Shown piece after piece: positions 19,792-49,871 of a DNA stretch of 64,000 bases. The first letter of the stretch is position 1, and each line of letters opens with the position of its first letter. The notes below the pieces were generated by a model. That model did not search any database. It was not told the origin of the DNA and was given only the letters and a program-made list of their open reading frames with translations. The DNA comes from a plasmid: the sequence record NZ_CP011600.1; one strand, written 5' to 3'. The position numbers and the translations under genes were made by a program.

Positions 19792-20361
19792 GTGCGCGCA
19801 TATGAGATTATCAGAATGAAATGGTTAGCTATCGCTGGCTTTGCTGCCGTATTCAGCGCACAGGCCGCGCCGGAATTATGTTTCGATGAAGCTGGTCGTG
19901 ACTATGGTATTGATCCCACGCTTCTGATGGCAATATCAATACAGGAGAGCCGGTTAAATCCGACAGCCATTAACAGCGCCAGTGCGGGCGGTACAGAAGA
20001 CGTCTGTGCGATGCAGCTCAACAGTAATAATTTCGGCAAGCTGAAAAACTTCAATATCACGCGTAAGGATCTGCTTAATAATCCCTGCATCTGCGTGTAC
20101 AGCGGCGCATGGATTTTAGCCAGAAACTTCCAGGCCTACGGCAGGAACTGGGACAGTGTGGGAATGTATAATACAGGACCGAATCCAAAACTGATAAAAG
20201 CAAGGCGTGAATATGCGAGGATCATAAAAAGCATCTACACGGTACTGCTCGCCAGAAAACAGTTACTTGAGAAAGGCACAGGCGATCCCGTTAAAACGTC
20301 GCCATTCAGTGAAAATGCTGACCAGAGAACACCGGTGAAAGACGAAAAAAAGCCCGGTTAA
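19792..20361 (+). CDS. lytic transglycosylase (SLT domain; F gene X/orf169 homolog)
   Basis: Signal peptide plus SLT motifs ESRLNPTAINS ... EDVCAMQLNSNNF ... YNTGP. Position next to oriT as orf169 in F. Confidence 0.8.
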   Translation: MRAYEIIRMKWLAIAGFAAVFSAQAAPELCFDEAGRDYGIDPTLLMAISIQESRLNPTAINSASAGGTEDVCAMQLNSNNFGKLKNFNITRKDLLNNPCICVYSGAWILARNFQAYGRNWDSVGMYNTGPNPKLIKARREYARIIKSIYTVLLARKQLLEKGTGDPVKTSPFSENADQRTPVKDEKKPG

Positions 20362-20377
20362 CCGGGCTTTTTATTTT

Positions 20378-21199
20378 CTAGCTCTTGAGCTTCGCAAACT
20401 CTTCGGCCATTTTCCACAATGCCTGATTAAGCTTTATGTCTCCGTCAATCCCTGTTACCGGGCGTGTGGTTGTATTTTTTCCTTTGGCCGTTCTGCCACG
20501 TAAACCACCCTTGATCAGGTTTTCCTGCACAGTGTTGTAGGTTGTCCAGAGGTCGGTTTGTTTATCTTCATAACGGCGCGGAACAAGAATTTTCTCTGCC
20601 GTGACGGGCGCTTCTTTGCCATCGTATTTAATATCGAGTGCGGTATTAGCGAGAAGGATTCTTTCGTCAGGAGAAACCGTGATCCCTTTCATCATCTCAA
20701 TATTTTCAGTGACATTATCAAATATCCCGAGCACCTCATATGCCCCTTCGATAACCTGCCCGACAATATCCCCTTTGTGAGGCACATTGATTTCCCCGAA
20801 TGACTTCCAGCAAACCAGACCATTCGTGCAGACCTGCCGATACATACCGGGGATCATTTTATAACTGCTGGACCCGTCGTGTGAGTTCAGTAAAAGAATC
20901 TCCGGCACTTCTTTACCCGAAAAATTATCGCCGCGACGTAAACGCAACATATGTTTCGTGAATTCCCGGCGGTCCGGATTACGTACACGTGACTGGCTGG
21001 CGTAATACGGCTGGAATCCCTCTTCACGCAGGCGATCCAGTAATGCGATGGTCGGAATATAGGTATATCTGTCAGAGCGTGATTCGTGTTTTTCCACTGA
21101 AAACGCGCTGGGAACAACACGCATCAGTTCATCATTCGTGAGAGGACGATTCTGGCGAATTGATGTCGGCGCAGCATAACGTGATGATAAACGGATCAT
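20378..21199 (-). CDS. DUF932-family leading-region protein (F orf273 equivalent)
   Basis: Start chosen at the ATG 21197-21199 with RBS AGGAGA, giving 273 aa, identical in length to F ORF273, which sits next to orf169. Confidence 0.55.
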   Translation of the reverse strand: MIRLSSRYAAPTSIRQNRPLTNDELMRVVPSAFSVEKHESRSDRYTYIPTIALLDRLREEGFQPYYASQSRVRNPDRREFTKHMLRLRRGDNFSGKEVPEILLLNSHDGSSSYKMIPGMYRQVCTNGLVCWKSFGEINVPHKGDIVGQVIEGAYEVLGIFDNVTENIEMMKGITVSPDERILLANTALDIKYDGKEAPVTAEKILVPRRYEDKQTDLWTTYNTVQENLIKGGLRGRTAKGKNTTTRPVTGIDGDIKLNQALWKMAEEFAKLKS

Positions 21200-21209
21200 G
21201 GTTATCTCC

Positions 21210-21512
21210 TTAAAAATAATTAGCAGGTACAACACGAAATAAAAAATCGAGTGGCAGAGCAGCTGCAACTGGCCAGCCGTTGCTGATCCAGACAGCGCAG
21301 TAATCCGGGATACCCTTTTCAAATACGTTGAGTTCTTCCGCATCTGCGGGTGGGGTGAAGTCGTGGCATTTCGCGCCCGGAATATCATCCGTCGCAGCAA
21401 AAACCCAGTTAAAGAGGTCGATGATCTGCCTGTCAGTCAGGCATGTGTTTTGATCACATCTTCCGGCGGTTTCTTCTCCGGCGCTTTTGACGTTGACGTT
21501 CTGTGTGTGCAT
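21210..21512 (-). CDS. hypothetical leading-region protein, paralog of 49228..49500, with conserved leader MHTQNVNVKSAGEETAGR
   Basis: 100 aa. Shares DLFNW...FTPPADAEEL...PDY..VWI.SGWPVAAA with the ORF at 49228..49500. RBS AAGGAGAA. Immediately downstream of Frpo-like element A. Confidence 0.5.
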   Translation of the reverse strand: MHTQNVNVKSAGEETAGRCDQNTCLTDRQIIDLFNWVFAATDDIPGAKCHDFTPPADAEELNVFEKGIPDYCAVWISNGWPVAAALPLDFLFRVVPANYF

Positions 21513-22045
21513 CCTGGTTTTCTCCTTCGGTGATGGTTAATCCATCTCCCTTGGCTGGTACTCTCGCGGCAACGGGCAGAGTAGCGACGGCAGACGAATG
21601 ACCGAATGGGCGTCACCGGAGGCCGCAGCGCAAGCGAGTCGTTTACGGCGAGTGCGAACGGGCGAGGAACGGCAACGCGTACCCATTCAGGGCAGGCGGA
21701 TGACGGTGCTACGAAATGCCCTCCGCGTGAGGACGGCAAGGGTGATGGCCTCACCGGACTGGCAGGATGCACACACCCGACCCGGCAACGTCATATCGCC
21801 GGGTCGCCCTTAAAGCGCCGGCGGCCACGTCGCCGGTGCGGTGAGAGCGGCGCGTCCCCCGGACGCAGCAAGCGCGCCCTAGACCTTGCCATCGGACACT
21901 AGCGAGCAGCCCGAAACCGCGCAGCGGGTTCGGCGGAGCTTAGCCGGCGGCCTGCCGCCGGGTTAGCGGAGTGTGGCCCTGACGACCCGGCCGGAACGGA
22001 CGGGGAGCCGAAGGGGGCCAGTGCCCTGAAGAGGTTTTTTGTGTT
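21513..22045 (+). promoter_or_regulatory. Frpo-like structured GC-rich repeat, copy A (putative single-stranded DNA promoter)
   Basis: About 530 bp, over 90 percent identical to copies at about 23788-24315, 25514-25995 (partly) and 43892-44350. Many internal hairpins, for example GCCCGAAACCGCGCAGCGGGTTCGGC. Lies on the predicted transferred strand directly upstream of a minus-strand gene. Confidence 0.5.
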
Positions 22046-22242
22046 CAGTGATCGGGAAAAGACGAATAACCAGGACAGGAATATGCGCCGGCACAGCAGC
22101 AAACATGTCAGGAATACGGGAGAGGGTAAGACACTATGTACCAGGCGTACGGGGAAAAGGGGGCGCGCCGCAGGCGCCCCCGTCCTGCCCGGTTCCCCGC
22201 AGGGGAACGCCCTTCCCGGCCGTGGCCGTTCCGGGCAGATGA

Positions 22243-22599
22243 TCAGCCGATTTCACCCTCTTCCATTTCAACGTACATCTCGGCAGCCATCATTAACGCC
22301 ATGAGTCCATTATGGTGCGGCGTGGTGATGCCAACCTGTTCACACAGGTGCATCAGATCGGCCAGGAAATCGATGATCACGGTCTCCATCTCTTCTGAAT
22401 CATTGGCCAGGCCAGTACGCTCAGCAAACAACCAGAGTGCCTCTGCCGCCAGGGCGGCGCGGTCTGCATTGTTCCAGACAACAGCCGGTGACGGGCGGCC
22501 GGAAACATTCGCCGCCAGATCGGCAAGCTCAGACGCAGGCAAGGATTCACCGCGACTCGCTCCCAACGCAGGCCCCATTTCTTCTTGTGCTTCTGACAT
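22243..22599 (-). CDS. highly acidic small protein (118 aa; about 25 D/E vs 6 K/R) - DNA-mimic-like candidate
   Basis: RBS AGGAGA before the ATG at 22597-22599. The antisense 162-aa track ORF has junk-like composition. Confidence 0.5.
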   Translation of the reverse strand: MSEAQEEMGPALGASRGESLPASELADLAANVSGRPSPAVVWNNADRAALAAEALWLFAERTGLANDSEEMETVIIDFLADLMHLCEQVGITTPHHNGLMALMMAAEMYVEMEEGEIG

Positions 22600-22654: not shown

Positions 22655-22804
22655 TTACGCCTCAGCCTCCATCCGGGCATTTACGGTAGTCATGAACTGC
22701 TGCCAGAATTCAAAACGCAGCGCGGGCATATGCGCGCGTTTTCCTGCTTTCAGGGCATTTACAAACGCGTTTGCCTGTGCGACGATTTGCGGGTCAAATA
22801 TCAT
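22655..22804 (-). CDS. small ORF (49 aa) not in the ORF track
   Basis: Manual translation gives MIFDPQIVAQANAFVNALKAGKRAHMPALRFEFWQQFMTTVNARMEAEA with RBS GGAGG 7 nt upstream. Below the 60-aa track cutoff. Confidence 0.35.
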   Translation of the reverse strand: MIFDPQIVAQANAFVNALKAGKRAHMPALRFEFWQQFMTTVNARMEAEA

Positions 22805-22889: not shown

Positions 22890-23354
22890 TTAATGCCCGG
22901 AATTCAGTTGCTTCTCCGGACAGAAACGGGTGATCACATCCTCGATCAGCGCTTTATGTTTCAGGGTGTGCAGGTCATGGCACTCAAAGAAACGCCCCTC
23001 CACACTCACAAAAATTGCGGTCACATCGCCGCCCGTAAATTCGCGCGACTTGAACGACTCCCCGCCAAATCCCCGGCACCAGTCCAGCGGCGGAAGAACT
23101 TCGAGCTGGTCGATGTACCGGGCTTCGGAAATCTCCACCCACGGACGGCGATAACCCAGGTTTTGCGCTTCCTTCACTTCGGAAAAAGACAGCAGTTCTG
23201 TGTCCGGGTAGATACGGCGCACGGCGTTCAGTGTTTTCGCACCATATTCGGTCACCCATTCGCCGTCCTGCTGCCTGGCCCAGGCATAGACGGTGTTGCA
23301 GGACGGGACATAAAACGCCATCGATGGGGTATTGAGAATTTCAGTTACGGACAT
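22890..23354 (-). CDS. hypothetical leading-region protein (154 aa)
   Basis: Strong RBS AAGGAGATAAGA-ATG. Protein-like composition. The antisense 228-aa ORF was rejected. Confidence 0.5.
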   Translation of the reverse strand: MSVTEILNTPSMAFYVPSCNTVYAWARQQDGEWVTEYGAKTLNAVRRIYPDTELLSFSEVKEAQNLGYRRPWVEISEARYIDQLEVLPPLDWCRGFGGESFKSREFTGGDVTAIFVSVEGRFFECHDLHTLKHKALIEDVITRFCPEKQLNSGH

Positions 23355-23415: not shown

Positions 23416-23787
23416 TCAGTAATCAGCGGCCAGTTCAGACAACAGCAGGTCGCATTCATCCTGTGCCCGCGCCTCCTCTGACGCAGTTACCATGTAACCC
23501 CGTTTAGCCGCCGCACCGATGAAAGCAGGGCGGTCATTCAGCGGCAGTTTTGCCAGGTGAATCATCGCCATCGATAAGAGGCGGGCTTCATAAATCTCGT
23601 AGTACAGCCCACACCCACGGTTTGCCTGTTTTTCCATCCGTGCCAGAACCACATCGGCGCGAATAACGTCGAACGGGTTACGTGAATGAATGTTTGTGAT
23701 AAAGCCATCAGTACGCATTGGTTTTATCCCCCATCTTCCGGCGGTTTCCTCTCCGGCGGTTTTGACGTTGACGTTCTGTGTGTGCAT
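23416..23787 (-). CDS. hypothetical protein carrying the conserved leader MHTQNVNVKTAGEETAGR
   Basis: 123 aa, downstream of Frpo-like copy B. Body unrelated to the other leader-bearing ORFs. In-frame internal Met (MRTDGF...) is an alternative start. Confidence 0.45.
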   Translation of the reverse strand: MHTQNVNVKTAGEETAGRWGIKPMRTDGFITNIHSRNPFDVIRADVVLARMEKQANRGCGLYYEIYEARLLSMAMIHLAKLPLNDRPAFIGAAAKRGYMVTASEEARAQDECDLLLSELAADY

Positions 23788-24315
23788 CCTGGTTTTCTCC
23801 TTCGGTGATGGTTAATCCATCTCCCTGGCTGGTACTCTCGCGGCAACGGGCCGAGTAGCGACGGCAGACGAATGACCGAATGGGCGTCACCGGAGGCCGC
23901 AGCGCAAGCGAGCCGTTTACGGCGAGTGCGAACGGGCGAGGAACGGCAACGCGTACCCATTCAGGGCAGGCGGATGACGGTGCTACGAACAGCCCTCCGC
24001 GTGAGGACAGCAGGGGAGATGGCCTCACCGGACTGGCAGGATGCACACACCCGACCCGGCAACGTCATATCGCCGGGTCGCCCTTAAAGCGCCGGCGCCC
24101 GTCGCCGGTGCGGTGAGAGCGGCGCGTCCCCCGGACGCAGCAAGCGCGCCCCGGACCTTCGCCATCGGACACTAGCGAGCAGCCCGAAACCCGAAGGGGT
24201 TCGGCGGAGCTTAGCCGGCGGCCTGCCGCCGGGTTAGCGGAGTGTGGCCCTGACGACCCGGCCGGAACGGACGGGGAGCCGAAGGGGGCCAGTGCCCTGA
24301 AGAGGGTTTTGCTTT
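23788..24315 (+). promoter_or_regulatory. Frpo-like structured repeat, copy B
   Basis: Near-identical to copy A across about 520 bp. Internal track ORFs (23708..24046, 23872..24087, 24065..24658) are artefacts of the repeat. Confidence 0.5.
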
Positions 24316-24560
24316 GAATGCATCCTGGAACACCCGGTAACAGCACGCACACAGGCAGCCACCGGAAACCGCAGCACACCCGGACCCACTCACCGGATAT
24401 AATGATGAGAGTGACGCCGCGAAGGGGGAGGCCCGGTGCGTCAGCACCGGCTTCCCCCGGCACGCAGTGCCGGTGGTTTTCGGGCCGTGCGCCGGGGCAG
24501 GCCACCGGGCAGACGGCTCCCGGTCTGGTACGCACCAGGAGCCTGTGGTGATGAGCTGTC

Positions 24561-24863
24561 TCAGGCCGGTTGTTTTCTGTTAAACGTGACGGCGTAATCG
24601 TCATAACTGAGACAGCCCCGCAGCCGCGTGAGCCTGACCACATTCTCCGCCAGGCCATTCATCGTCAGTATCCGCTCGATACCTGCAAAGAGGTCTTCAC
24701 GCTCACCGAGCGGAAACCAGAGGTTGCTGTTGCTGCCGCTCAGGAGCGGATGGCCGCAAAAATGCACTCCCCTGCCCTGCCTGGTCAGGCAGACCGTAAC
24801 AGTGATATCAGCGCGGATATGCTCTGCTGATGTACTGAGACCAGGTTGTCCGGTCATTTCCAT
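24561..24863 (-). CDS. hypothetical protein (100 aa)
   Basis: RBS AGGAGAACATC-ATG. Follows the stop of 24935..25513. Confidence 0.4.
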   Translation of the reverse strand: MEMTGQPGLSTSAEHIRADITVTVCLTRQGRGVHFCGHPLLSGSNSNLWFPLGEREDLFAGIERILTMNGLAENVVRLTRLRGCLSYDDYAVTFNRKQPA

Positions 24864-24934: not shown

Positions 24935-25513
24935 TCAGCGGACGTACTGCCAGTGACAGAAGGGACTCTCGTCGTCCCCTTTTTTCAGGTGTTCACGGGC
25001 GTACTTCTCCAGTCCCTTGTGTTCTGCCTCAAAAATCGCTCTCGCATCGTCGTTCATCACACCGGAAGCCATATAGACCTGCGTTGTTTCGTACTCGGCT
25101 GTTTCCGCGCACTCGTCATCGCCGATCCGGTTAGCACAATGCACCACCCTTGCTTCCCATGTTTCCGGCACGGCCTGCGGCTGCGGGCGGTATACAAACA
25201 CCGTGACCAGCAGTTTTTCCTGCGGTTTTATCAGCATCATCTCGATACCTGAACGGACACCCCTGTCGCCAAAAACCCACTCATCGAGCGCGAACCGCGC
25301 GGCTGACAGATACTCAATGCCCATGTCAAACGACGTGCGAATTGCAGCCGTATTCACTGCCGGGGATCCGGGAATAAACAGGCTGCGGCGATACGAACGC
25401 GCAGCACGTTCCCGGATGTCGTTAACATCACGGTTTAATGCCGTTGAATTCTGGTTTTCACCCCCTGTTTCGGCGGTTGTGGTTGCGGCGGTTTTGCTGT
25501 TCTGTGTTTTCAT
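24935..25513 (-). CDS. hypothetical leading-region protein (192 aa) with divergent leader MKTQNSKTAATTTAETGGENQ
   Basis: Downstream of Frpo-like copy C. The N-terminus is a diverged version of the conserved leader. Confidence 0.45.
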   Translation of the reverse strand: MKTQNSKTAATTTAETGGENQNSTALNRDVNDIRERAARSYRRSLFIPGSPAVNTAAIRTSFDMGIEYLSAARFALDEWVFGDRGVRSGIEMMLIKPQEKLLVTVFVYRPQPQAVPETWEARVVHCANRIGDDECAETAEYETTQVYMASGVMNDDARAIFEAEHKGLEKYAREHLKKGDDESPFCHWQYVR

Positions 25514-25995
25514 GCTGGTTCTCCTGTGTTGGTTACTGAAACCCTGTTTCGGTCGGAATGGCGCGGCAAAGGGCCAGGTAGCGACGGCAGACGAATGACC
25601 GAATGGGCGTCACCGGAGGCCGCAGCGCAAGCGAGCCGTTTACGGCGAGTGCGAACGGGCGAGGAACGGCGAGGCGAACCCATTCAGGGCAGGCGGATGA
25701 CGGTGCTACAGCAGCCTGACGCAGCCATCGCCCGGAACAGGCTGTACCGGCGGAGGATGAGCATGAAAACAGACAGAACAGTGCCCCTGCCCTGAGAGGC
25801 CGCGTGCGGCCGGTGAAAGCGGCGCGTCCCCCGGACGCAGCAAGCGCGCCCCGGACCTTTGCCATCGGACACCAGGAGCAGCCCGAAACCGCGCAGCGGG
25901 TTCGGCGGAGCTTAGCCGGCGGCCTGCCGCCGGGTTAGCGGAGTGTGGCCCTGACGCCCCGGCCGGAACGGACGGGGAGCCGAAGGGGGCCAGCT
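25514..25995 (+). promoter_or_regulatory. Frpo-like structured repeat, copy C (distal two-thirds conserved, gene-proximal part diverged)
   Basis: Shares ...GTAGCGACGGCAGACGAATGACCGAATGGGCGTCACCGGAGGCCGCAGCGCAAGCGAG... and ...GCGGCGCGTCCCCCGGACGCAGCAAGCGCGCCCCGGACC...GCCCGAAACCGCGCAGCGGGTTCGGCGGAGCTTAGCCGGCGGCCTGCCGCCGGGTTAGCGGAGTGTGGCCCTGACG... with copies A, B and D. Confidence 0.45.
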
Positions 25996-26078: not shown

Positions 26079-26336
26079 ATGTCAGAAAATGAAGACGAAG
26101 ATGATGCTGAAGACGCGTTTTACGACGAGACGTGCAGGATAGTGGGCCAGTGCTGCCTGATGCTGGCCATCAACGATGCAGAAACCGACCGGGCGCAGCT
26201 GGTATACCAGTTGAAACGACTTCACTGGAAAATCATGCAGCTGACCAGTGAATCCCACAACGGGATACTGATGGCCATCGGGCAACTGGAGACGGCGGAG
26301 ATGTATGAGGAGAGGACGGGCAGGCGGCGGGAATAA
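26079..26336 (+). CDS. small protein with acidic N-terminus (85 aa), opposite orientation to its neighbours
   Basis: RBS GGAGG then ATG at 26079. MSENEDEDDAEDAFYDE.... Followed by hairpin-rich sequence. Confidence 0.4.
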   Translation: MSENEDEDDAEDAFYDETCRIVGQCCLMLAINDAETDRAQLVYQLKRLHWKIMQLTSESHNGILMAIGQLETAEMYEERTGRRRE

Positions 26337-26539: not shown

Positions 26540-26698
26540 TTACTTACCGGATTCGTAAGCCATGAAAGCCGCCACCTCCCTGTTCGTGTCCCTGTACCGG
26601 ATTTCGCAGAGCGATTTACGGGTCAGGTAAGTGAATATCAGCAGTGTGAGACACACTATTAACACGCACCAGAGCAGGGTACTTCGTGGCAGTTTCAT
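26540..26698 (-). CDS. hok: Hok-family type I toxin (hok/flmA/srnB-like)
   Basis: Manual translation [52 protein letters not shown] (52 aa) is a near-canonical Hok. Below the track cutoff. Confidence 0.75.
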
Positions 26699-26769
26699 AG
26701 CTGACTTCTCCTGTCAACGCAAAGCAGAAGTGTCACCATCGGTGCGAAACAGAGATGTCATGCTTTGGT

Positions 26770-27057
26770 TCAGAGAATGCGTTTGACCGCCTCGCTATAT
26801 ACTTCCGAGCGTTCTCTTTTCCCAACAGAAATCACGAAAACGACAACTTTCTCGTCTATAACCTGGTATACAAGGCGATAGCCTGAAGACCGGAGCTTAA
26901 TCTTGTAACAATCAGGCATACCACGGAGCTTGTTTGCTTCAATCCGGGGTGACTCAAGTACTTCAACCAGCTTCTTTTTCAACTGTTCACGTACCGTCGA
27001 GCCCAGCTTTCGCCATTCCTTTAGTGCCCGCTCGTCAAAATCCAGAAAATACGCCAT
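26770..27057 (-). CDS. relE: RelE/ParE-family type II toxin
   Basis: 95 aa with the ...YRLVYQVIDEKVVVFVISVGKRERSEVY... RelE fold signature. Start overlaps the relB stop. Confidence 0.8.
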   Translation of the reverse strand: MAYFLDFDERALKEWRKLGSTVREQLKKKLVEVLESPRIEANKLRGMPDCYKIKLRSSGYRLVYQVIDEKVVVFVISVGKRERSEVYSEAVKRIL

Positions 27058-27296
27058 CAGAGTTCATCCAGCGTCACACGTACTGGCTTAGGATTACAAA
27101 GTCGTTCTTTCACTATCTCCACAAGTTCAGCATCTTCATCACTCAGGAGTGTCTGTTTGAACGGCAAGCGTTCATTGTCAGCGATATACTCGAGCATGAG
27201 ACGAAGCGCTTCAGAAGGAGTTACGCCCATTTTTTCAAGCGCGGCGTAAGAACGCGCTTTAAGTTCATCGTCAATACGTAGGTTAATGCTACCCAT
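27057..27296 (-). CDS. relB: RelB/DinJ-family antitoxin
   Basis: 79 aa. MGSINLRIDDELKARSYAALEKMGVTPSEALRLMLEYIA is typical of RelB RHH antitoxins. Confidence 0.75.
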   Translation of the reverse strand: MGSINLRIDDELKARSYAALEKMGVTPSEALRLMLEYIADNERLPFKQTLLSDEDAELVEIVKERLCNPKPVRVTLDEL

Positions 27297-27303
27297 GTCT
27301 TAC

Positions 27304-27345
27304 ACCCCTTGTAATTACAAATGTCATTACAAGTATCGCACTACA
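27304..27345. promoter_or_regulatory. relBE operator-like repeats (TTGTAATTACAA / ATGTCATTACAAG)
   Basis: Palindromic TTGTAAT/ATTACAA repeats immediately upstream of relB. Confidence 0.4.
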
Positions 27346-27534
27346 ACATGCTTAGGGCAAGTCACGAAGTAAGTCAGAAAGTAGTCGTAAGAACGGTGAT
27401 CACTGTCCGCTTTGTGCCAGAAGTGGACGGCAGGATTTGTTGAACATTTCAGACAAAACCAAACTCAAAACAACTATTGAAATCAAGCCAGCATAGCGGA
27501 TACATTACGCACGTTGTTACTTTGTATCATCAGG

Positions 27535-27912: not shown

Positions 27913-27955
27913 TAACTTCTGCTAATTCGTTATTATTCAACATGTAAGGATTTTT

Positions 27956-28693: not shown

Positions 28694-28706
28694 GGGAGAC
28701 AAAACA

Positions 28707-29396: not shown

Positions 29397-29401
29397 TAAA
29401 T

Positions 29402-29428
29402 CAGGGGCAGGATAACCTGCCCCTTTTC
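29402..29428 (+). terminator. rho-independent terminator (CAGGGGCAGGATAACCTGCCCCTTTT)
   Basis: Perfect hairpin followed by a T-run, between convergent genes. Confidence 0.6.
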
Positions 29429-31737: not shown

Positions 31738-31766
31738 AGTGTAGAGATTAATACATATGGTAGAGA

Positions 31767-33438: not shown

Positions 33439-33446
33439 CGCCCGAT

Positions 33447-43576: not shown

Positions 43577-43891
43577 TTAAATGTTGATCCCATTGCGCGC
43601 GATCAGACGCACAAACTGTTTGAAATGGTCAGCCTCGACCACCGGAACGTGGCAAAAATCTTTATCCACACCCGCACTGACGATGTAGTGATAAGCCCTT
43701 TTCATTTTTTCCGGGGCGCGGCTGCGATAGCTTTTCAGCGACGCGAGGGAGTCGAACTCCAACACATCCATTTCCTCCGTTGAGTTTTTCTCGCCTTCGG
43801 CGATCAGAATGAGTAAAGGCGAGGGGTTTTTAATCCATCTTCCGGCGGTTTCTTCTCCGGCGCTTTTGACGTTGACGTTCTGTGTGTGCAT
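43577..43891 (-). CDS. hypothetical protein carrying the conserved leader MHTQNVNVKSAGEETAGR (sits where ssb is found in F)
   Basis: 104 aa, downstream of Frpo-like copy D. Internal GGAGG-ATG (MDVLEFDSL...) is an alternative start. Confidence 0.45.
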   Translation of the reverse strand: MHTQNVNVKSAGEETAGRWIKNPSPLLILIAEGEKNSTEEMDVLEFDSLASLKSYRSRAPEKMKRAYHYIVSAGVDKDFCHVPVVEADHFKQFVRLIARNGINI

Positions 43892-44350
43892 CCTGGTTTT
43901 CTCCTTCGGTGACGGTTAATCCATCTCCCTTGGCTGGTACTCTCGCGGCAACGGGCCAGGTAGCGACGGCGAACGGAAAAGACCAGGGCGCGCCTGCGCG
44001 TGCACTTCACCCTGGTGTTTTTCGGGCGAACGGTGCTACAGCAGCCCTCCGCGTGAGGACAGCAGTGGGAGATGGCCTCACCGGACTGACAGAATGCACA
44101 CACACGACCCGGCAACGTCACACCGCCGGGTCGCCCTTAAAGCGCCGGCGCCCGTCGCCGGCGCGGTGAGAGCGGCGCGTCCCCCGGACGCAGCAAGCGC
44201 GCCCCGGACGTTGCCATCGGACACTAGCGAGCAGCCCGAAACCCGAAGGGGTTCGGCGGAGCTTAGCCGGCGGCCTGCCGCCGGGTTAGCGGAGTGTGGC
44301 CCTGACGACCCGGCCGGCACGGACGGGAAGCCGAAGGGGGCCATGTTCAG
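43892..44350 (+). promoter_or_regulatory. Frpo-like structured repeat, copy D
   Basis: Gene-proximal 120 bp and distal about 230 bp match copies A and B. Central part differs. Confidence 0.45.
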
Positions 44351-44580: not shown

Positions 44581-44991
44581 TTATTTGCCCAGCGTTTTTC
44601 TCAGAGCGTCCAGTGCCCGGGCCTCATCCGGGTAGTTGCGCGCGGCCGCCCCCTCTCCCCCCTGTATGTCCTCCAGTCGCATAAATTCACCTGCCAGCGC
44701 CAGCACATTTTTCAGCGCGGCGGCAGGCACACTGATTTGACGGTGCCAGGCTTCTTCCTCACGCAGGTTTTCCAGAATGCACACGAGGGTATCCTCCCCC
44801 ACGCCGCACACATGCTTGTCATCCAGACTGTCAATCAGCGCGACGATGCGCGCCGCCATAATCTCAGTCACGTGGTATTCAGCCAGGCAGTCCTGCACGT
44901 CCTCTTTTGTCCAGACAATCAGTGCCAGCGGCTCATCCGGTTTGTATTGCTCAGTCAGTGCGGCGCACAGCGCCTCAGTGGTTCCGTACAT
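44581..44991 (-). CDS. hypothetical leading-region protein, paralog of 46188..46604
   Basis: 136 aa. Shared LALIVWTKEDVQ / LLLFIWTQESIR region. Confidence 0.45.
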   Translation of the reverse strand: MYGTTEALCAALTEQYKPDEPLALIVWTKEDVQDCLAEYHVTEIMAARIVALIDSLDDKHVCGVGEDTLVCILENLREEEAWHRQISVPAAALKNVLALAGEFMRLEDIQGGEGAAARNYPDEARALDALRKTLGK

Positions 44992-45099: not shown

Positions 45100-45300
45100 C
45101 TATTCGCGTGGAACAGTCCGGCCACCCTGTATGATGAACTGGTTGCATAAATACACGCTGACCTGGCATGTCATGTATTCACACATCGAATCGAGGATTT
45201 TTGCGGTAGTGACGGGAGGCAGCTCCATGTCCCGGCGGCGTTGGTTAATCAGTTCCTTGTACTGCCTGAGAATATTGCGGGTATCAGTGCTGAGTTCCAT
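45100..45300 (-). CDS. small hypothetical protein (66 aa)
   Basis: RBS AGGAGATAAAC-ATG. Confidence 0.35.
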   Translation of the reverse strand: MELSTDTRNILRQYKELINQRRRDMELPPVTTAKILDSMCEYMTCQVSVYLCNQFIIQGGRTVPRE

Positions 45301-45344: not shown

Positions 45345-45776
45345 TCAGTCCAGCGCGCGCTGAATAACAGCGGCATCCGGGTGGGTTTCAATAAACGCCA
45401 TGAGCGCTGAAAAGCGGTTGCAGAAATGGGCGCACAACTCGTCATTGTCATGGTGACTGTGATAAAAACTGCGGTGATTGAGCACCAGTGCCGTCACGAT
45501 GATGCCCGCGACTTCGCCGCTCACCTCCTGCTCAAACCAGTTATCCGGGTTGCAGAACATGACAGTTTCCCTGTCCGGCACCATGAAACCTGCACCATCC
45601 GGCAGGCTGTAGTACTCCCAGAATCCCCCGTTGTAGCCGTCGATATACCGGCTGGCATAGGCATACACGGACAACTCGGACAACATGAAATCGCTGCTGA
45701 ACAGGGACGGCAAAAAAGTCAGGCGCTGTGCGCCGTCAAGACGTGTCGCATCGGTGTGGCTGAGTGTGGTGATCAT
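45345..45776 (-). CDS. klcA: KlcA/ArdB-family antirestriction protein
   Basis: 143 aa. ...VYAYASRYIDGYNGGFWEYYSLPDGAGFMVPD...HPDAAVIQRALD parallels RK2 KlcA ...YAWMRRLCERYNGAYWHYYALSDGGFYMAPD...HPEAAAIYRAID. Confidence 0.75.
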   Translation of the reverse strand: MITTLSHTDATRLDGAQRLTFLPSLFSSDFMLSELSVYAYASRYIDGYNGGFWEYYSLPDGAGFMVPDRETVMFCNPDNWFEQEVSGEVAGIIVTALVLNHRSFYHSHHDNDELCAHFCNRFSALMAFIETHPDAAVIQRALD

Positions 45777-45783
45777 AAATCCT

Positions 45784-46150
45784 CCGCTGGTTAAGTGGGT
45801 TACTGTTCCGGCTTGCGCCGTGCCGACACGACAGCCCGGCGGTCAGCGGAAGAATGCAAGGGCGACACCGGAAGCCGCACGCGCCGTTGTGAGCGGGCTG
45901 AATGCGCCGCGAACAACGGGGAACGGGTGAGGATGGCGAGCGCCAGCGTCCCTTGCAGGCGCCGCAGCCGGGCTACAGTGAAGGCACGGCGTTAGCCGTC
46001 ACCGCACGGAGGTCAGCATTATCAGTGGTCCGGTCGCAGCCCGCAGGGATACGGCCGGACATCAGGGAGGAGCAGCGCGACACCCTTTTTCCCGTAAGGC
46101 GTCGCCCGCCAGGGTGAAGCCGGGTAACAGCGGAGCCGGCGACAACCTTA
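45784..46150 (+). repeat. family-2 GC-rich structured intergenic repeat (GCCGTGCCGACAC...GGGCTGAATGC...GAACGGGTGAGGATG...GTGAAGGCACGGCG), copy 1
   Basis: Three clear copies (45784-46150, 47590-47880, 48140-48420), each directly upstream of a minus-strand gene. Termini are inverted (GCCGTGCC...GGCACGGC). Confidence 0.6.
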
Positions 46151-46187: not shown

Positions 46188-46604
46188 TCAGGCGGCCATC
46201 AGCGTTTTGATGGTGTCCACATCCTGCATGGCGCGTTTAATACTCACGGGTGTCGGATGCCCTTCTTCCCATGCAAGCCCTTCCTGGTGCACCAGTTCGG
46301 CTTCATGGCGGGCAATCAGGCGTTGCAGGACATCCACCGGGACCGGTACTGTCCGGGTTGCATCTTCCCGGATACGTGCCAGCAGGGTTCTCACCGTCTC
46401 ATGCGAAAATCCGTCTCGCTGGTAGTCCGCCATTGAAAGGCTTCCGGCCTGCAACATGAGTTGTTCTGTTTCCTGGTCTGACGGGTGCATACTGTTGCAG
46501 GCGGCCCGGATACTCTCTTGTGTCCAGATGAACAGCAGCAGGGGCTCTTTCGCTTTGAACATACGGACCAGTTCGTCACAGGCTTCTTTGCGGTTACGGT
46601 ACAT
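46188..46604 (-). CDS. hypothetical leading-region protein, paralog of 44581..44991
   Basis: Start placed at MYRNRKEACDEL (ATG 46602-46604, RBS AGAGGGA). Confidence 0.45.
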   Translation of the reverse strand: MYRNRKEACDELVRMFKAKEPLLLFIWTQESIRAACNSMHPSDQETEQLMLQAGSLSMADYQRDGFSHETVRTLLARIREDATRTVPVPVDVLQRLIARHEAELVHQEGLAWEEGHPTPVSIKRAMQDVDTIKTLMAA

Positions 46605-46659: not shown

Positions 46660-46881
46660 TTAGTCCTGAAAACTCTCGTCCAGCTCCAGCATCTCCCGGT
46701 AGGCCTCCAGAAAACGGGCATTGATCCGTCTCAGGGTCTGAGCGGCCATGCGTCCGGCCAGCGTGGCCGAATCATGCCGGTGCTCTGATTCCAGACGGTT
46801 CAGCATCATCCGGACGTCACACATGGCGTTGCTGAGCGCTGCGACGTCGGCGCGCAATGCTTCCAGTCCCGGGTAATTCAT
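46660..46881 (-). CDS. small hypothetical protein (73 aa), coupled downstream of the methylase
   Basis: RBS GGAGG. Start overlaps the methylase stop. Confidence 0.4.
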   Translation of the reverse strand: MNYPGLEALRADVAALSNAMCDVRMMLNRLESEHRHDSATLAGRMAAQTLRRINARFLEAYREMLELDESFQD

Positions 46882-47570
46882 GCGGCCTCCGGCCAGTCAG
46901 GATGAAAGGCGCCATCGTTGGCCGCCGGCATCCGGCGCGCCCGTTCGACCTGCGCCAGACGGCGGACGCCGGCGGCGTGGTATTCCTCAAGCAGTTCGAT
47001 GCCGATATAACGACGGCTGGCTTCGGCGGCTGCCACGCAGGTCGATCCGGAACCCGCAAACGGGTCGAGGATGATCGCACCCGGGCGTGTGAGGGATTCG
47101 ATGAGCGGGCGAAGGCTCTGCACCGGTTTTTCCGTCGGGTGGTGGCGGTTGCCCGTGTATTTCCAGGGAATGACGTCAGGGATGGGGCAATCCGGTGTCT
47201 GCGGCCGCCCTTTGGCCAGCAGATAGGCACTTTCGTGGGTGTAGCCCACAAACGTGGATTTCGAGGCATACGTTTTGGCAAATACCACGTGCCCGACAAT
47301 CCGGAAGCCGGCCTGTTTCCAGGCGTTAATGAACAGATCGGCACGGTTCCACGCGTAGAAACTGACCATCAGGCTGTCCTGTTTCAGCACGCGGTACATC
47401 TGCTGGCAGGCAGGCTCCAGCCATTCCGGCGTGTTATCGCCGGCGAGCGTGCGGCCTGAACGGTCGCGGTAGCCGACGAGATACGGCGGATCGGTCAGAA
47501 TAAAATCGACGGCACGGGACGGAAAACGGGACATGACCTGCACACAGTCACCCAGGATAAAACGGGACAT
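46878..47570 (-). CDS. orphan DNA N6-adenine/N4-cytosine methyltransferase (DPPY motif)
   Basis: Start at MSRFILGDC (ATG 47568-47570, RBS GGAGAG). Motif IV ILTDPPY, motif I region DPFAGSGSTCVAA. No adjacent endonuclease. Confidence 0.75.
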   Translation of the reverse strand: MSRFILGDCVQVMSRFPSRAVDFILTDPPYLVGYRDRSGRTLAGDNTPEWLEPACQQMYRVLKQDSLMVSFYAWNRADLFINAWKQAGFRIVGHVVFAKTYASKSTFVGYTHESAYLLAKGRPQTPDCPIPDVIPWKYTGNRHHPTEKPVQSLRPLIESLTRPGAIILDPFAGSGSTCVAAAEASRRYIGIELLEEYHAAGVRRLAQVERARRMPAANDGAFHPDWPEAA

Positions 47571-47589: not shown

Positions 47590-47880
47590 TGCGGCACCCT
47601 CTTGCGCCGTGCCGACACAAAAGCCCGGCTTTAAGCGGCAGGCGAAAAGGGCGTCACCGCAAGCCGCACGCGCCGCTGTGAGCGGGCTGAATGCACCGTG
47701 AACAGCGGGGAACGGGTGAGGATGACGGCGTCAGCGCACCCTTAGAGACGACGCGGCCGGGCTAGCGTGAAGGCACGGCGTGCAAACACACCGGCGCCCG
47801 TCACAACGGGGGACGGTTCTGTCGCGGAGCGCAGCGACCTCCTTTCGCAAAAGAGGCCGCCCGAAGGCGACCGGCAGGCT
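47590..47880 (+). repeat. family-2 structured intergenic repeat, copy 2
   Basis: See 45784..46150. Confidence 0.6.
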
Positions 47881-47882: not shown

Positions 47883-48116
47883 CTACTCCCGCATCCTTTC
47901 GATGGCCATCTCCAGTGTGTACCAGTTGAACCCCACCTCTGCATCATGCTGGTCGTCGGCGATTTCCATCGCCGCCTCAATGTCTTCATCTGTCAGCGAG
48001 GGATCGAGAGAAAGAAAATCCTCCGCCAGCCAGAACGTCCCCAGACAGAGGGCATCTTCCGGGTATCTCTGCAACCGCGCGATAAGGCCGGCAATGGTCA
48101 TTGGGGATCTGTGCAT
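47883..48116 (-). CDS. small acidic hypothetical protein (77 aa)
   Basis: Start at MHRSPMTIAGL (ATG 48114-48116). Confidence 0.35.
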   Translation of the reverse strand: MHRSPMTIAGLIARLQRYPEDALCLGTFWLAEDFLSLDPSLTDEDIEAAMEIADDQHDAEVGFNWYTLEMAIERMRE

Positions 48117-48139
48117 GTTTGTCTCCGGTATAGTGCGGC

Positions 48140-48420
48140 CAGACAGGATTGCCTGCGCCGTGCCGGCACACAAGCCCGGTGAAAAGCCGAAGTCGGAGGG
48201 GCGACACCGCAAGCCGCAGCGCAAAACCTTTACGGGCTGAATGCGCCGTAAAGGGTGCGAACGGGTGAGGATGGCGAGCGGCAGCGGTACCCGGATGACG
48301 ATGCGGCCGGGCTACCGTGAAGGCACGGTGCAGGTGGAAGCATATCCGGCTCCGGCTGGCGAATTTCGTCAGTCCGGAAAAAAGCGGGCCAGGCCCGCTT
48401 CGGATATCAGCAAAGCCGGG
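48140..48420 (+). repeat. family-2 structured intergenic repeat, copy 3
   Basis: See 45784..46150. Confidence 0.55.
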
Positions 48421-49228
48421 ACATAAATGCCCGCATGGCCTGGATGCGCTCATGCGACCGTATCCGTTCCTGCCAGTCATTGAAGAACCAGACTGGAGTA
48501 TGACGCGTCAGGTTCATCTGCAGTGTCAGGGTATTGCCGGTGTTCACCGTGGCCGGAATGCCCAGCAGGCTGAGTTGCACAAACGTCATGTCTGCCGCCA
48601 GTGGATCGATATCAATGGTGGTGACCAGAAGCTGTGTCGCGGGATTCAGCCCGGCCTGCAGCATAATCTCCGCAAATGCAATGACCATGCCCCCTGCCCC
48701 GCTTGTTGGCTCCTGCAGACTGATAAAGGGGCAGGATTTCAGCTGCGCCAGTAAGTCACCGGCGGCCAGCTGCGCCAGCAAAGATGAAACGGAATGCGGC
48801 GTGAAGTATTGCCCCATCTCATCGGCTCCCAGCTCAAGCTCCATGTAAACCGAACCCAGAAAATCCTGGTGCGCTTCTGAGAGCGCAGCGACCATGAGCG
48901 AAAACAGCGTATGCATCCGGTCGATATCCGACGCTTTATAGCGGGCGATAATCTGGCTGCAGCGCGCCCTGCTTTCCGGCGTGTGAATGCGGACCAGATC
49001 CAGTTCGCTGGCCGCCAGGGTGACAAAATCACGAAAGACCTCACTGCGCCGCAGATACGTCGCTGTCTGGCAGAATTCATCAATGAAGGCCTGCCGCGTT
49101 TGCCCCCGGACTTTGCGTGCAGGAACGCTAACAACTGCGGGCAGTGCCCGGGCAGCTGTCAGGTCTGAAACGGGTACTGATGGCGTGATGGCCATATCCG
49201 GTGCATCAAACATAGAGAGCTGAGACAT
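48407..49228 (-). CDS. HsdM-like N6-methyltransferase-domain protein, possibly degenerate
   Basis: GQYFTPHSVSSLLAQL...EPTSGAGGMVI matches HsdM motifs X and I. No convincing NPPF/Y motif IV was seen. Confidence 0.45.
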   Translation of the reverse strand: MSQLSMFDAPDMAITPSVPVSDLTAARALPAVVSVPARKVRGQTRQAFIDEFCQTATYLRRSEVFRDFVTLAASELDLVRIHTPESRARCSQIIARYKASDIDRMHTLFSLMVAALSEAHQDFLGSVYMELELGADEMGQYFTPHSVSSLLAQLAAGDLLAQLKSCPFISLQEPTSGAGGMVIAFAEIMLQAGLNPATQLLVTTIDIDPLAADMTFVQLSLLGIPATVNTGNTLTLQMNLTRHTPVWFFNDWQERIRSHERIQAMRAFMSRLC

Positions 49229-49500
49229 TACGCCCCCTCCCCTGGCAGCGTGATAAAAAGACCGTCCATGGGTGCAGCTGCAGCAACAGGATAGCCTGAG
49301 ACAATCCAGACCTGCAGATAATCCGGTCCCGCATCCCAGAAGGCCACAAGTTCTTCGCTGTCTGCCGGTGGGGTGAAATTATCCGGGAACTGCAGACCGG
49401 GCACAGTCATGATCCAGTCAAACAGGTCCAGGACCTGGTCTGTTGAAAGTGATGATTCTTTAGATTCTTTTGCTGCGGTGTTGACGTTTTTCTGTGACAT
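49228..49500 (-). CDS. hypothetical leading-region protein, paralog of 21210..21512
   Basis: Start MSQKNVNTAAKESKES (ATG 49498-49500, RBS GGAGGA). Start/stop overlap with the upstream gene. Confidence 0.5.
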   Translation of the reverse strand: MSQKNVNTAAKESKESSLSTDQVLDLFDWIMTVPGLQFPDNFTPPADSEELVAFWDAGPDYLQVWIVSGYPVAAAAPMDGLFITLPGEGA

Positions 49501-49820
49501 GTTGGATTTCCTCCGGGTTAAGTTGATGTTTCTCTGAGTTCCTTCGCCGCAGAAACAGGCAACCCACACGGAGACAAGGAGGATGCAGGGAGAACGACAA
49601 AGCCGCAGCCCGGAGCCTGCGAAGGGACCGGGTGCCGTCGTTCAGCTCTGCGGTCCTTGCAGCCGACGGCCGTGTGGGACAGTCCTGTGCGGTGAAGAAC
49701 GGGAGAGACATCAGTTCGGGGACAGAACAGGTCACAGTTCCGGAACGCAACGCGTGACGGGCTAAAGCGTGCCGGTACGGCACAGTGAAAGCGACATGGC
49801 CAGAGGCCATTGTCAGCGCA
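49501..49820 (+). promoter_or_regulatory. GC-rich structured element upstream of 49228..49500 (third, more diverged Frpo-like element)
   Basis: Hairpin-rich, for example GCAGCCCGGAGCCTGCGAAGGGACCGGGTGC and GCGTGCCGGTACGGCAC. Same position relative to its gene as the other elements. Confidence 0.35.
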
Positions 49821-49821
49821 T

Positions 49822-49845
49822 AAAAAAACCCGCGGAAGCGGGTTT
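49822..49845 (-). terminator. rho-independent terminator AAACCCGCTTCCGCGGGTTTTTTT (minus strand) ending the stb operon
   Basis: Perfect GC stem then a 7-T run on the minus strand. Confidence 0.65.
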
Positions 49846-49871
49846 ATGTGTCGCAATATGAGAAGGGTTGG

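Follow-up and report, generated by a model that had tools for sequence, protein, structure and literature searches.

Genes of the backbone and of the inserted cargo

The window, a stretch of 64,000 nucleotides from the plasmid record NZ_CP011600.1, belongs to an F-like plasmid (MOBF/MPF_F, IncFIB/FIC by plasmid typing). The Phytobacter plasmid pMRY16-398_1 matches it at 98.8-99.6% identity, and CP026189 is 100% identical to positions 39556-52000. The oriT nick region (19598..19620, + strand) is flanked by TraM (18598-18987) and by gene X, a lytic transglycosylase gene (19792..20361, + strand; Pfam SLT, E 2.9e-20) that is syntenic with F and that, as in F, is not templated by the T-strand. The nick-site match reads TTGCGTGGGGTGT/GATG at 19602-19618 versus TTTGCGTGGGGTGT/GGTG in F, and nic is predicted at 19614/19615 from the established nick position in F. 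Because this sequence matches that of F, the + strand is read as the T-strand. The backbone, which extends over 19.6-26.7 kb and 39.6-49.9 kb, comprises eight - strand operons, and 23 of its 25 genes lie on the - strand, that is, are templated by the T-strand (one-sided binomial, ~1e-5 by our own arithmetic).

Many of the backbone genes have counterparts in the F leading region. The gene next to gene X (20378..21202, - strand) encodes a DUF932 protein homologous to YgeB (Pfam, E 1.3e-48; 65% identity to F 64435-65256). The - strand also carries psiA (40119..40850; Pfam PsiA, E 6.2e-23; 35% protein identity to F), the SOS inhibitor gene psiB (40847..41275; Pfam PsiB, E 2.1e-39; 36%), the anti-restriction gene klcA/ardB (45345..45776; Pfam Antirestrict PF03230, E 1.3e-22; 41%) and the gene of an orphan DPPY N6/N4 DNA methyltransferase (46878..47570; PF01555, E 3e-36; PRK13699, E 1.7e-127; 71%). 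Family profiles thus bear out all five of the names originally given to PsiA, PsiB, KlcA/ArdB, the methylase and Hok. A ParB-like protein (41320..43344, - strand) matches NCBIfam ParB models and is the homologue of F YfjB/HerB (F 59538-61478; 41% identity over 662 aa, E 8e-146). The protein described as HsdM-like (48407..49228, - strand; phrog_5696, E 3e-67) does match N6_Mtase (E 3e-6), but the match is confined to positions 22-116 of the 311-position profile, and inspection of its sequence found no NPPY/F motif; it is a SAM-binding-domain protein without catalytic motif IV. Neither ssb nor DUF905 was found within the window, a difference from F, where ssb stimulates Frpo.

The original prediction took the whole interval 19792-49870 for a dense early island, nearly all of it templated by the T-strand. 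This describes the backbone well, but 12,843 bp of the interval (43%; 26712..39554, both strands) are cargo, with only 5 of 15 genes on the - strand. According to the annotation of a near-identical record, this island carries relBE, HupE/UreJ, chrAB, ncrABCY and ISEsa1. The RelBE, chromate and nickel resistance and ISEsa1 island is cargo, outside the leading-region backbone and the early-gene system. A 16-nt direct repeat, CATAGCTGACTTCTCC, borders it on both sides (26696-26711 and 39555-39570), and its insertion point is the start codon of hok, so that an F-like hok/sok locus is split. On one side lies the hok toxin ORF (26540..26698, - strand; Pfam HOK_GEF, E 2.3e-19; 95% identical to F Hok), severed from its sok/mok leader, within a stretch (26322-26712) that matches F 62962-63347. 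On the other side lies the sok/hok-mRNA leader fragment (39555..39727, - strand; Rfam RF01794, 112.5 bits, E 5e-25), which matches F 62808-62969.

T-strand hairpins at the operon heads

Each of the eight operons is headed by one long hairpin (A1-A4, B1-B3 and H8). The hairpins are imperfect, 180-345 nt long and formable only in the transferred single strand. The A-type elements, all on the + strand, are A1 (21440..22110; hairpin 21465-21808, z -4.9), A2 (23715..24385; hairpin 23763-24067, z -6.8), which is 96% identical to A1, A3 (25485..25993; hairpin 25485-25790, z -4.2) and A4 (43828..44343; hairpin 43842-44148, z -4.4). The B-type elements, also on the + strand, are the ssp2/class-2-like B1 (45780..46000; hairpin 45809-45998, z -4.6), B2 (47601..47781; hairpin 47604-47781, z -4.5) and B3 (48151..48334; hairpin 48152-48334, z -4.9). 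H8 (49467..49767, + strand; z -6.0) is, of all eight, the one most like Frpo1/2 of F. All eight span their element end to end (z -4.2 to -6.8); none of 50 dinucleotide shuffles was as stable, and for six coding controls z ranged from +0.85 to -2.1.

Relatives of these elements occur in F and among published candidates for ssDNA promoters. H8 is 66-68% identical to F ssiD/Frpo1/2 over 84-97 nt. The B-type repeats have two homologous stretches in F, namely 56488-56736, which is ssp2 and lies upstream of klcA (described in PMC13478746), and 52660-52844; they also match Frpo' 4 and Frpo* 1/3 of Samuel et al. at 71-74% identity (E 1e-27 to 1e-36). B1 is homologous to the klcA-upstream segment F 56488-56558 and to Frpo* 1/3. 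The A-type repeats match Frpo* 5/7 at 62-70% identity (E to 1e-30; A1 versus Frpo* 5, 62%, E 3e-26), Frpo* 5-7 having been graded as low-certainty candidates (PMC11541004). An A+T-rich loop-proximal segment, present in F Frpo and in Frpo* 5, is lacking in A1-A3, and a search of the A-type hairpins for -35, -10 or UP elements placed none convincingly. Among eight aligned B-type/ssp2-like elements, 19 of 43 consensus pairs show compensatory changes and a TAnnnT motif in the 3' arm is invariant; in the B-type elements the spacing from TTGCAx to TAnnnT is 15 nt, shorter than canonical.

In the class-1-like hairpins (A1-A4 and H8), the basal stem includes the Shine-Dalgarno (SD) sequence, the ATG and the first 9-16 codons of the first gene (16 codons for A1 and the ORF at 21210; the leader codons of the ORF at 49228 for H8). 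The five first genes share the N-terminus M-x-T-Q-N-V-N-V/T-, which a six-frame scan found on these genes only, and the leader codons are paired in the stem in all five cases. Otherwise unrelated genes thus have a common leader because their first codons are part of the hairpin.

The repeats might instead be mainly recombination substrates or selfish elements that shuffle cassettes, with their upstream position a by-product. A1 and A2 exactly bracket a 2.27-kb segment with four ORFs (~21591-23977). The two closest relatives lack this segment and have only one repeat at that site; in pMRY16-398_1 this repeat resembles A4 most, not A1. Segments of the A repeat are present at no fewer than 14,076 places in at least 5,000 plasmids, and Couturier et al. 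describe Frpo1 and Frpo2 as recombination substrates too (PMC9849209). However, all the repeats have one orientation with respect to the downstream gene and end at or inside its translation start, compensatory changes preserve the hairpin structure, and start sites have been mapped, and deletion phenotypes described, for homologues in F and pESBL (PMC9849209, PMC12672017). Recombination as the main role is therefore improbable, and the two roles are compatible.

Small ORFs

Fifteen ORFs had originally been listed as having no assignable family, most with good ribosome-binding sites (RBSs) and a structured repeat immediately upstream. Six can now be assigned (all - strand). The ORF at 43577..43891, first after hairpin A4 and with the shared leader, encodes a homologue of F YgeA (45% identity, E 1.5e-26) and heads the parB-psiB-psiA operon, at a place where F has ssb. 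The 66-aa ORF at 45100..45300 and the 73-aa ORF at 46660..46881 (phrog_4830, E 2e-25) have homologues at F 57646-57837 (49% identity, E 1e-19) and F 54850-55071 (55%), respectively. DUF1380 proteins are encoded at 44581..44991 (Pfam, E 1e-10; phrog_9024) and at 46188..46604 (Pfam, E 3.3e-13), the latter with its start revised to the ATG at 46604 (138 aa), and a DUF1419 protein of 154 aa at 22890..23354 (Pfam PF07215, 27.9 bits versus a cutoff of 23). Both DUFs are among the leading-region-enriched unknowns in the supplementary tables of Samuel et al. 2024, DUF1419 in Supplementary Table 1 (PMC11541004).

The small ORFs of unassigned function (- strand) range from widespread to rare. The 105-aa basic ORF downstream of psiA (39797..40114; phrog_27524, E 1.7e-14) occurs in 3,630 plasmid records, usually adjacent to psiA; databases misname it 'theronine dehydrogenase'. 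The 123-aa ORF at 23416..23787, first after A2 and with the shared leader, is found in 3,215 records at 58-74% identity, mostly Klebsiella conjugative plasmids, and the 100-aa second gene of the A3 operon (24561..24863) in 1,818 (96% conjugative, 63.6-kb plasmids among them). The acidic 78-aa ORF at 47883..48119 (start revised to 48119; phrog_10258, E 3.7e-5), the only gene after B3, has 692 records. Another acidic ORF of 100 aa (21210..21512), first after A1 and with the shared leader, occurs in 225 records without a match in Pfam, NCBIfam or PHROG; its paralogue, at 42% identity, is the acidic 90-aa ORF at 49228..49500, first after H8 and with a leader variant. The very acidic 118-aa ORF at 22243..22599 (phrog_3963, E 3.5e-10) has 18 protein clusters and occurs in 110 plasmid records. 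The 192-aa ORF at 24935..25513, first after A3 and with a leader variant, belongs to a rare family.

Some of the listed ORFs could be chance reading frames in GC-rich DNA. One is: '26079' (TTG start, no RBS) was rejected as the antisense shadow of a + strand DUF2767-family gene (26082..26336; GGAGGAG RBS), which is annotated in pMRY16-398_1 and has a weak Pfam match (E 0.01). The repeats also create long spurious ORFs (e.g. 21437-21772, 23708-24046 and 44078-44560), and the weakest gene call of the set, at 22655..22804 (- strand; GGAGG RBS), has only 49 aa and gave no match in Pfam, NCBIfam or PHROGs. Against this, a clear GGAG-type RBS precedes 12 of the 14 real ORFs, in line with the original description, the ORFs have conserved homologues (45-75% protein identity) that number hundreds to thousands of plasmids, or belong to PHROG or Pfam families, and the ORF at 24935 has a confident predicted fold and conserved motifs. 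It is thus very unlikely that several of them are spurious. The structured repeat lies directly upstream of only five of the 15 (21210, 23416, 24935, 43577 and 47883); the others are downstream operon members.

Predicted early expression and possible roles

Nick-site homology, strand bias, F synteny and the eight T-strand hairpins agree in identifying the interval as a leading region, the part of an F-like conjugative plasmid that enters the recipient first, here with genes for establishment and anti-defence that are templated by the incoming T-strand. The best explanation is very probably such a region, with eight early operons headed by single-stranded DNA (ssDNA) hairpins and a cargo insertion. 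The anatomy, homologies and folding statistics come from this plasmid itself; ssDNA-dependent early transcription of the operons is suggested by published homologues. In F, Frpo1/2 are required for early expression (PMC9849209). Early induction of the F operons with klcA and with the methylase gene is reported as well, and 5' RACE in pESBL supports ssDNA promoters of classes 1-3 (PMC12672017). By homology to F Frpo1/Frpo2/ssp2 and IncI1 ssi, the hairpins may restore, within ssDNA, a sigma-70 promoter in double-stranded form. The operons would then be read by host RNA polymerase within minutes of entry, ahead of complementary-strand synthesis, and conversion to double-stranded DNA would switch them off. 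Points that weigh against this scheme are the missing ssb, the short TTGCAx-to-TAnnnT spacing of the B-type elements and, for the A-type hairpins, the lack of convincingly placed promoter elements and of the A+T-rich segment in A1-A3. The early products would include PsiB and PsiA for SOS suppression, KlcA/ArdB and the orphan methylase against restriction, and the YfjB/HerB-like ParB protein for host reprogramming, together with the YgeA and YgeB homologues.

The original prediction proposed, from position, that the ~15 small ORFs are candidates for anti-restriction, anti-CRISPR or anti-SOS factors. The general idea of anti-defence islands in leading regions, a concept of 2023-2026, has already been published, with statistical enrichment of anti-defence genes there (Samuel et al. 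2024, PMC11541004). That most of the small ORFs encode genuine anti-defence proteins, which would reach the recipient early and disable its immunity, fits with their sharing hairpin-headed operons with klcA, the orphan methylase and psiB, with the phage relatives of unassigned function that several have in PHROGs, and with the small, strongly acidic, DNA-mimic-like character of some (net charge -17 for 22243, -12 for 47883, -10.5 for 49228 and -8 for 21210), although acidity by itself is weak evidence. The proposed profile and structure checks do not lend it weight: searches of Pfam, NCBIfam and PHROGs linked none of the small ORFs to a known anti-defence family, PDB sequence searches with five proteins (including 24935, 43577 and 22890) gave nothing significant, the one confident model (24935) has no relative among solved or viral structures, and the AF2 model of 22243 (pLDDT 60) is too low for use. 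In F, deletion of ygeA lowers conjugation, YgeA being without known function (PMC9849209), and YfjB/HerB, whose homologue is the best-studied of the neighbouring genes, was reported in 2026 to reprogramme host transcription and offset the acquisition cost rather than to act against defence (PMC13370423). Such a role of HerB is of the sort that the original prediction had named as speaking against it. An anti-defence role for most of the small ORFs thus appears rather unlikely, and the ~13 real small proteins are most plausibly factors of early establishment, only some of which are likely to be anti-defence.

Plasmid identity and the putative early-gene backbone

The interval 19792-49870 belongs to a kind already known, the leading-region islands that Samuel et al. 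reported in 2024 (PMC11541004). As in those islands, anti-restriction, SOS-inhibitor, methylase and toxin-antitoxin genes lie just after oriT and are read from the T-strand (the transferred strand), Frpo-like hairpins stand upstream of ORFs, many genes are uncharacterised, and a umuDC-like operon (52564-54266, + strand) flanks the locus, as often happens with such islands. Their tables also list DUF1380, DUF905 and DUF1419 among the enriched unknowns (PMC11541004). A difference from those islands is that no anti-CRISPR was detected in the window.

The sequence identifies the window as part of an F-like conjugative plasmid. The Phytobacter plasmid pMRY16-398_1 (MOBF, MPF_F, IncFIB/FIC) matches 19792-44000 at 98.8% identity over 85% of the length, and CP026189 is 100% identical to 39556-52000. 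The - strand tra genes end with traM (18598-18987; Pfam Tra_M), and an oriT-like stretch separates it from gene X (SLT; 19792-20361, + strand) and then the DUF932 gene. Within this stretch, the + strand at 19602-19618 reads TTGCGTGGGGTGT/GATG, where F has TTTGCGTGGGGTGT/GGTGCTTT. By correspondence with the established F nick site, we take the nick to lie at 19614/19615 on the + strand. The + strand would therefore be the T-strand, entering 5' end first with coordinates rising and serving as template for the - strand genes. Both the F-homologous motif and its flanks, traM on one side and gene X and DUF932 on the other, place the interval directly on the leading side of the predicted nick. Between traM and the nick, at least six direct copies of GTGTGT(T/C)AATCCGGCACT with 33-nt spacing (19119-19353) are followed by inverted copies (AGTGCC...GACACAC; 19400-19520); these are probably relaxosome (TraM/TraY-type) binding sites. 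Beyond the island (49872-58218) lie parMR-like partition genes (50121-51480), the umuDC-like operon, sopAB-like partition genes (54487-56705) and a Rep3 initiator gene (57448-58218).

The original prediction held that nearly all genes downstream of the nick are templated by the T-strand. This is true of the backbone, where 23 of 25 genes between the nick and 49870 lie on the - strand (only gene X and a DUF2767 gene do not), but not of a cargo island at 26712-39554, where only 5 of 15 do. Most of the proposed early functions are borne out by profile matches: PsiA (E 6e-23), PsiB (E 2e-39), Hok (E 2e-19), KlcA/ArdB (E 1e-22) and a DPPY N6/N4 orphan methylase (PRK13699, E 2e-127). A cluster for anti-restriction (KlcA/ArdB), SOS inhibition (PsiA, PsiB) and orphan methylation is thus present. 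The ParB-like gene (41320-43344) matches NCBIfam ParB models (E 5e-12 to 3e-6), with a Pfam ParB_N match under the cutoff, and its product resembles F YfjB along its full length (41% identity over 662 aa, E 8e-146), which identifies it, at the level of sequence, as a YfjB/HerB homologue. A 2026 report describes YfjB/HerB as a protein that reprograms host transcription and offsets the cost of plasmid acquisition (PMC13370423). With a HerB homologue as neighbour, "early establishment" is a safer label for these genes than "anti-defence".

The ORF at 48407-49228, which had been read as HsdM-like, lacks a feature that defines a methylase. Its match to Pfam N6_Mtase covers only profile positions 22-116 of 311, short of a complete catalytic domain; motifs X, I and II are present (YFTP, EPTSGAGG, DIDP) and the sequence contains no NPP[YFW] motif IV. 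With motif IV missing and the profile only partly covered, the name methylase is not appropriate for this protein. Along its whole length it matches phrog_5696; instead of being an enzyme, it may bind SAM or serve as an HsdM decoy.

Fifteen small ORFs, named here by their lower coordinate, had been listed without an assignable family. Six have one: 43577 is a full-length homologue of F YgeA (45% identity over 104 aa, E 1.5e-26), 45100 and 46660 correspond to F 57646-57837 and F 54850-55071, 44581 and 46188 are DUF1380 proteins (42.3 and 50.3 bits; Pfam gathering cutoff 26), and 22890 belongs to DUF1419 (27.9 bits; cutoff 23). One of the others, 26079, was called on the wrong strand: it has a TTG start and no RBS, and lies antisense to the + strand DUF2767 gene (26082-26336). 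That gene is preceded by a strong RBS, and the annotation of the near-identical plasmid includes it.

Synteny with F is strong. There the order is oriT - geneX - ygeB - ygeA - Frpo1 - flm - psiA - psiB - yfjB/herB - yfjA - ssb - Frpo2 - ... - klcA - ssp2 - ... - methylase, and the window agrees in nick sequence, gene order and orientation. Homologues of DUF932/YgeB, YgeA, PsiA, PsiB, YfjB/HerB, KlcA, two DUF1380 proteins, the methylase and two small ORFs are shared (tblastn identities to F: methylase 71%, DUF932/YgeB 65%, KlcA 41%, PsiB 36%, PsiA 35%), hok/sok adjoins psiA, and long T-strand hairpins head the operons. The window differs from F in lacking ssb and yfjA (DUF905), homologues of which were found nowhere in the 64 kb. 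F Ssb stimulates Frpo. In F, ssb heads the parB-psiB-psiA operon; in the window that place (near 43.5-44.5 kb) is held by the YgeA homologue, whereas YgeA of F precedes DUF932. Nine real ORFs of the list have no F homologue (21210, 22243, 22655, 22890, 23416, 24561, 24935, 39797 and 47883), and the same is true of 48407 and 49228.

Hairpin repeats and predicted operons

Self-comparison of the window defined two repeat families. Family A (~580 nt) occurs at 21440-22110 (A1), 23715-24385 (A2), 25485-25993 (A3) and 43828-44343 (A4), and family B (~180 nt) at 45780-46000 (B1), 47601-47781 (B2) and 48151-48334 (B3); an eighth element, H8, occupies 49467-49767. Folded as + strand DNA, each element forms one end-to-end imperfect hairpin with a z-score of -4.2 to -6.8 (B1-B3, -4.5 to -4.9), and for every element none of 50 dinucleotide shuffles was as stable. 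Six coding stretches of the same region, used as controls, gave z-scores of +0.85 to -2.1.

A - strand gene lies directly downstream of every hairpin, so that the 23 - strand backbone genes, except hok (orphaned by the cargo island), fall into eight operons. H8 precedes 49228 and the "HsdM-like" gene; B3 precedes 47883 alone; B2 is followed by the methylase gene, 46660 and a DUF1380 gene, and B1 by klcA, 45100 and the other DUF1380 gene. The operon after A4 comprises ygeA-like, parB/herB-like, psiB, psiA and 39797; A3 heads 24935 and 24561, A2 heads 23416, the DUF1419 gene, 22655 and 22243, and A1 heads 21210 and the DUF932 gene.

Frpo1 and Frpo2 of F fold in the incoming single strand and rebuild a promoter, and early transient F expression needs them (PMC9849209). 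Three classes of ssDNA promoter, with start sites mapped by 5' RACE, are known from pESBL; the F klcA and methylase operons are induced early (PMC12672017), and ssp2 is the current name of the element that precedes F ardB/klcA (PMC13478746, section 15). Early, transient, ssDNA-dependent expression is known only for homologous operons of F and pESBL (PMC9849209, PMC12672017). Because the published homologous elements act in this way, the eight hairpins are taken as putative ssDNA promoters, more securely for B1-B3 than for A1-A4.

B1-B3, which are ssp2-like (class 2), match F 56488-56736, upstream of klcA, at 67-73% over blocks of 65-89 nt (E 1e-4 to 1e-6), and family B also matches F 52660-52844. 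An alignment of eight B-type/ssp2-like elements yielded 43 consensus pairs, 19 of them compensatory. The 3' arm, which would be the non-template strand, carries TTGCAx and an invariant TAnnnT at a spacing of 15 nt, which is unusually short. Both repeat types match Supplementary Table 2 of Samuel et al.: family B resembles Frpo' 4 and Frpo* 1/3 at 66-74% (E to 5e-36) and family A the low-certainty Frpo* 5/7 at 62-70% (E down to 1e-30). In contrast to validated Frpo, these relatives are graded there as "candidate" (Frpo' 4) or "low-certainty" (Frpo* 1, 3, 5, 7).

H8, which like the A repeats is class-1-like, shares 66-68% identity over 84-97 nt with ssiD/Frpo1/2 of F. BLAST of A1-A4 against F Frpo1/2 gave no match at E<0.01, and in a MAFFT alignment of the A repeats with F Frpo only short islands of similarity appeared. 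Candidate -35/-10 boxes in the A hairpins, picked by eye and by a consensus scan, were dropped as unconvincing. The case for A1-A4 is the weaker one because -35, -10 and UP elements could not be placed and A1-A3 lack the A+T-rich UP-like segment of canonical Frpo.

Several hairpin-headed operons, klcA and methylase operons among them, and more than one hairpin class per plasmid are also found in IncI1 pESBL/ColIb-P9 (PMC12672017). These belong to another plasmid family, their start sites rest on 5' RACE whereas none is mapped here, and their ardA and ssb are absent from the window.

The distal ~230 nt of the A repeat (21810-22045 and the equivalents in A2-A4) are made up of several short GC-rich hairpins and carry no annotation. 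No other part is as widespread: thousands of Klebsiella plasmids have it at ~75% identity. It could act in termination, in priming or as a roadblock to replication.

A shared N-terminal leader and possible cassette turnover

Three first genes, 21210, 23416 and 43577, encode the same first 18 residues, MHTQNVNVK[S/T]AGEETAGR, and variants of this leader begin 24935 and 49228 (five-gene consensus M-x-T-Q-N-V-N-V/T-). The bodies of the proteins are unrelated, save for the pair 21210/49228. In a six-frame scan, no genes of the window carried the leader except the five that come first behind A1-A4 and H8; outside the window, F YgeA has it, as do two further ORFs of an Enterobacter plasmid. In homologues of 24935 and 21210 taken from elsewhere, the leader variants are swapped.

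When a wider span is folded, the SD, the ATG and the first 9-16 codons pair with sequence 3' of the main hairpin to form its basal stem, e.g. 21465-21512 with 21767-21808. The RBS, start and leader codons involved lie at 21465-21512, 23763-23787, 25485-25513, 43842-43891 and 49467-49500. The leader codons contain TTGACGTT, which is present too in the non-coding base of F Frpo. In F Frpo1/2, the gene-proximal part is colinear with the leader DNA and mostly non-coding. Starts lie inside the hairpin base in the window, but ~20-80 nt downstream in F. In the structural model of 24935, the leader is disordered (pLDDT below 50, residues 1-27). Unrelated proteins would share an N-terminus because the RBS, start and leader codons form the basal stem, and, read most simply, the peptide reflects a constraint of DNA structure and not of protein function. 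Such embedded starts have to be taken into account in cloning or annotating these genes, and explain puzzling shared N-termini.

A more speculative proposal, to which we give a rather low probability, is that the class-1-like hairpins are portable 5' modules, each comprising a promoter hairpin, RBS, start codon and leader of 9-18 codons within the basal stem. Recombination within the conserved module would fuse the leader in frame to unrelated gene bodies, whole cassettes would be swapped between plasmids, and the leading region would form an integron-like exchange array of early genes; the shared peptide would then be a passive by-product or a functional tag, e.g. for fast translation or rapid turnover. 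Four or more unrelated protein families of the window bear the leader, and so do the Enterobacter plasmid ORFs; such exchange would fit this distribution, as well as the fact that homologues within one family differ in leader variant, the variants resembling the leaders of other families. It would also fit a gap in the two closest relatives, which lack ~21591-23977 (compared with 11941-12001 of pMRY16-398_1). In place of A1, A2 and the four genes enclosed by them (22243, 22655, 22890 and 23416), these relatives have one repeat. The single repeat of pMRY16-398_1 is closer to A4 than to A1. The absence of the four-gene unit is consistent with recombination between hairpin repeats.

Turnover also affects family B. 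At window position 47719/47720, exactly in B2, pMRY16-398_1 has a 4.5-kb insertion (35745-40247) that the window lacks; it carries a type II RM system (cytosine methylase and type II endonuclease) and an IS110-family transposase. At least 5,000 plasmids contain parts of the A repeat, and these parts map to no fewer than 14,076 places.

The cargo island and the remaining small ORFs

The cargo island (26712-39554) takes up 12,843 bp, or 43% of the interval, and contains relBE, HupE/UreJ, chrAB, ncrABCY and ISEsa1 genes in mixed orientation, which shows how much of such an "island" may be unrelated cargo. The cargo is inserted in an F-like hok/sok locus, precisely at the start codon of hok. The F stretch 62808-62969 corresponds to window 39564-39726, in which Rfam sok scores 112 bits, and F 62962-63347 to window 26322-26712. 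Whereas hok/sok of F is undivided, the hok ORF (26540-26698) and the sok leader (39555-39727) here stand 12.8 kb apart and form no contiguous locus. The ORF itself is intact; parted from its sok/mok leader, it now has relE, on the same strand, as its immediate upstream neighbour.

The island is bordered by a 16-nt direct repeat, CATAGCTGACTTCTCC (26696-26711 and 39555-39570), which is the SD-ATG of hok. The island could have arisen by transposition or by recombination between two hok loci. The repeat was considered as an ISEsa1 target duplication; an inverted-repeat search found no left end of ISEsa1. The same island ends recur in many Enterobacter plasmids, in one of which they stand in a different hok context.

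Whether a resistance plasmid survives its first minutes in a new host is decided by its leading region, and a search for new proteins of counter-defence or host manipulation can reasonably start from the unknown genes there. The contribution of this locus is practical rather than conceptual: it adds ~13 real candidates, cleaned and set in eight predicted early operons, with abundance figures for most of them. None of the unknown ORFs matched an anti-defence family in Pfam, NCBIfam or PHROGs, and several fall into phage-shared PHROGs families of undefined role. Sequence searches of the PDB with 24935, 46188, 43577, 22890 and 48407 gave nothing significant. A Pfam match of 24935 to lambda Ea8.5 was weak (E 0.01, below cutoff) and was set aside. 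The AF2 model of 22243 reached a pLDDT of 60 and was for that reason left out of the fold search. Several of the unknown proteins are strongly acidic, which fits DNA mimicry, although acidity is weak evidence.

Abundance was taken as the number of PLSDB records matched by tblastn. It ranges from 3,630 records for 39797, nearly always beside psiA, and 3,215 for 23416, through 1,818 for 24561 (96% conjugative) and 692 for 47883, to 225 for 21210 and 110 for 22243; 24935 occurs in very few plasmids. The most abundant of these ORFs, 39797-40114 on the - strand, carries the public label "theronine dehydrogenase" without having such a domain, and encodes a basic protein of 105 aa.
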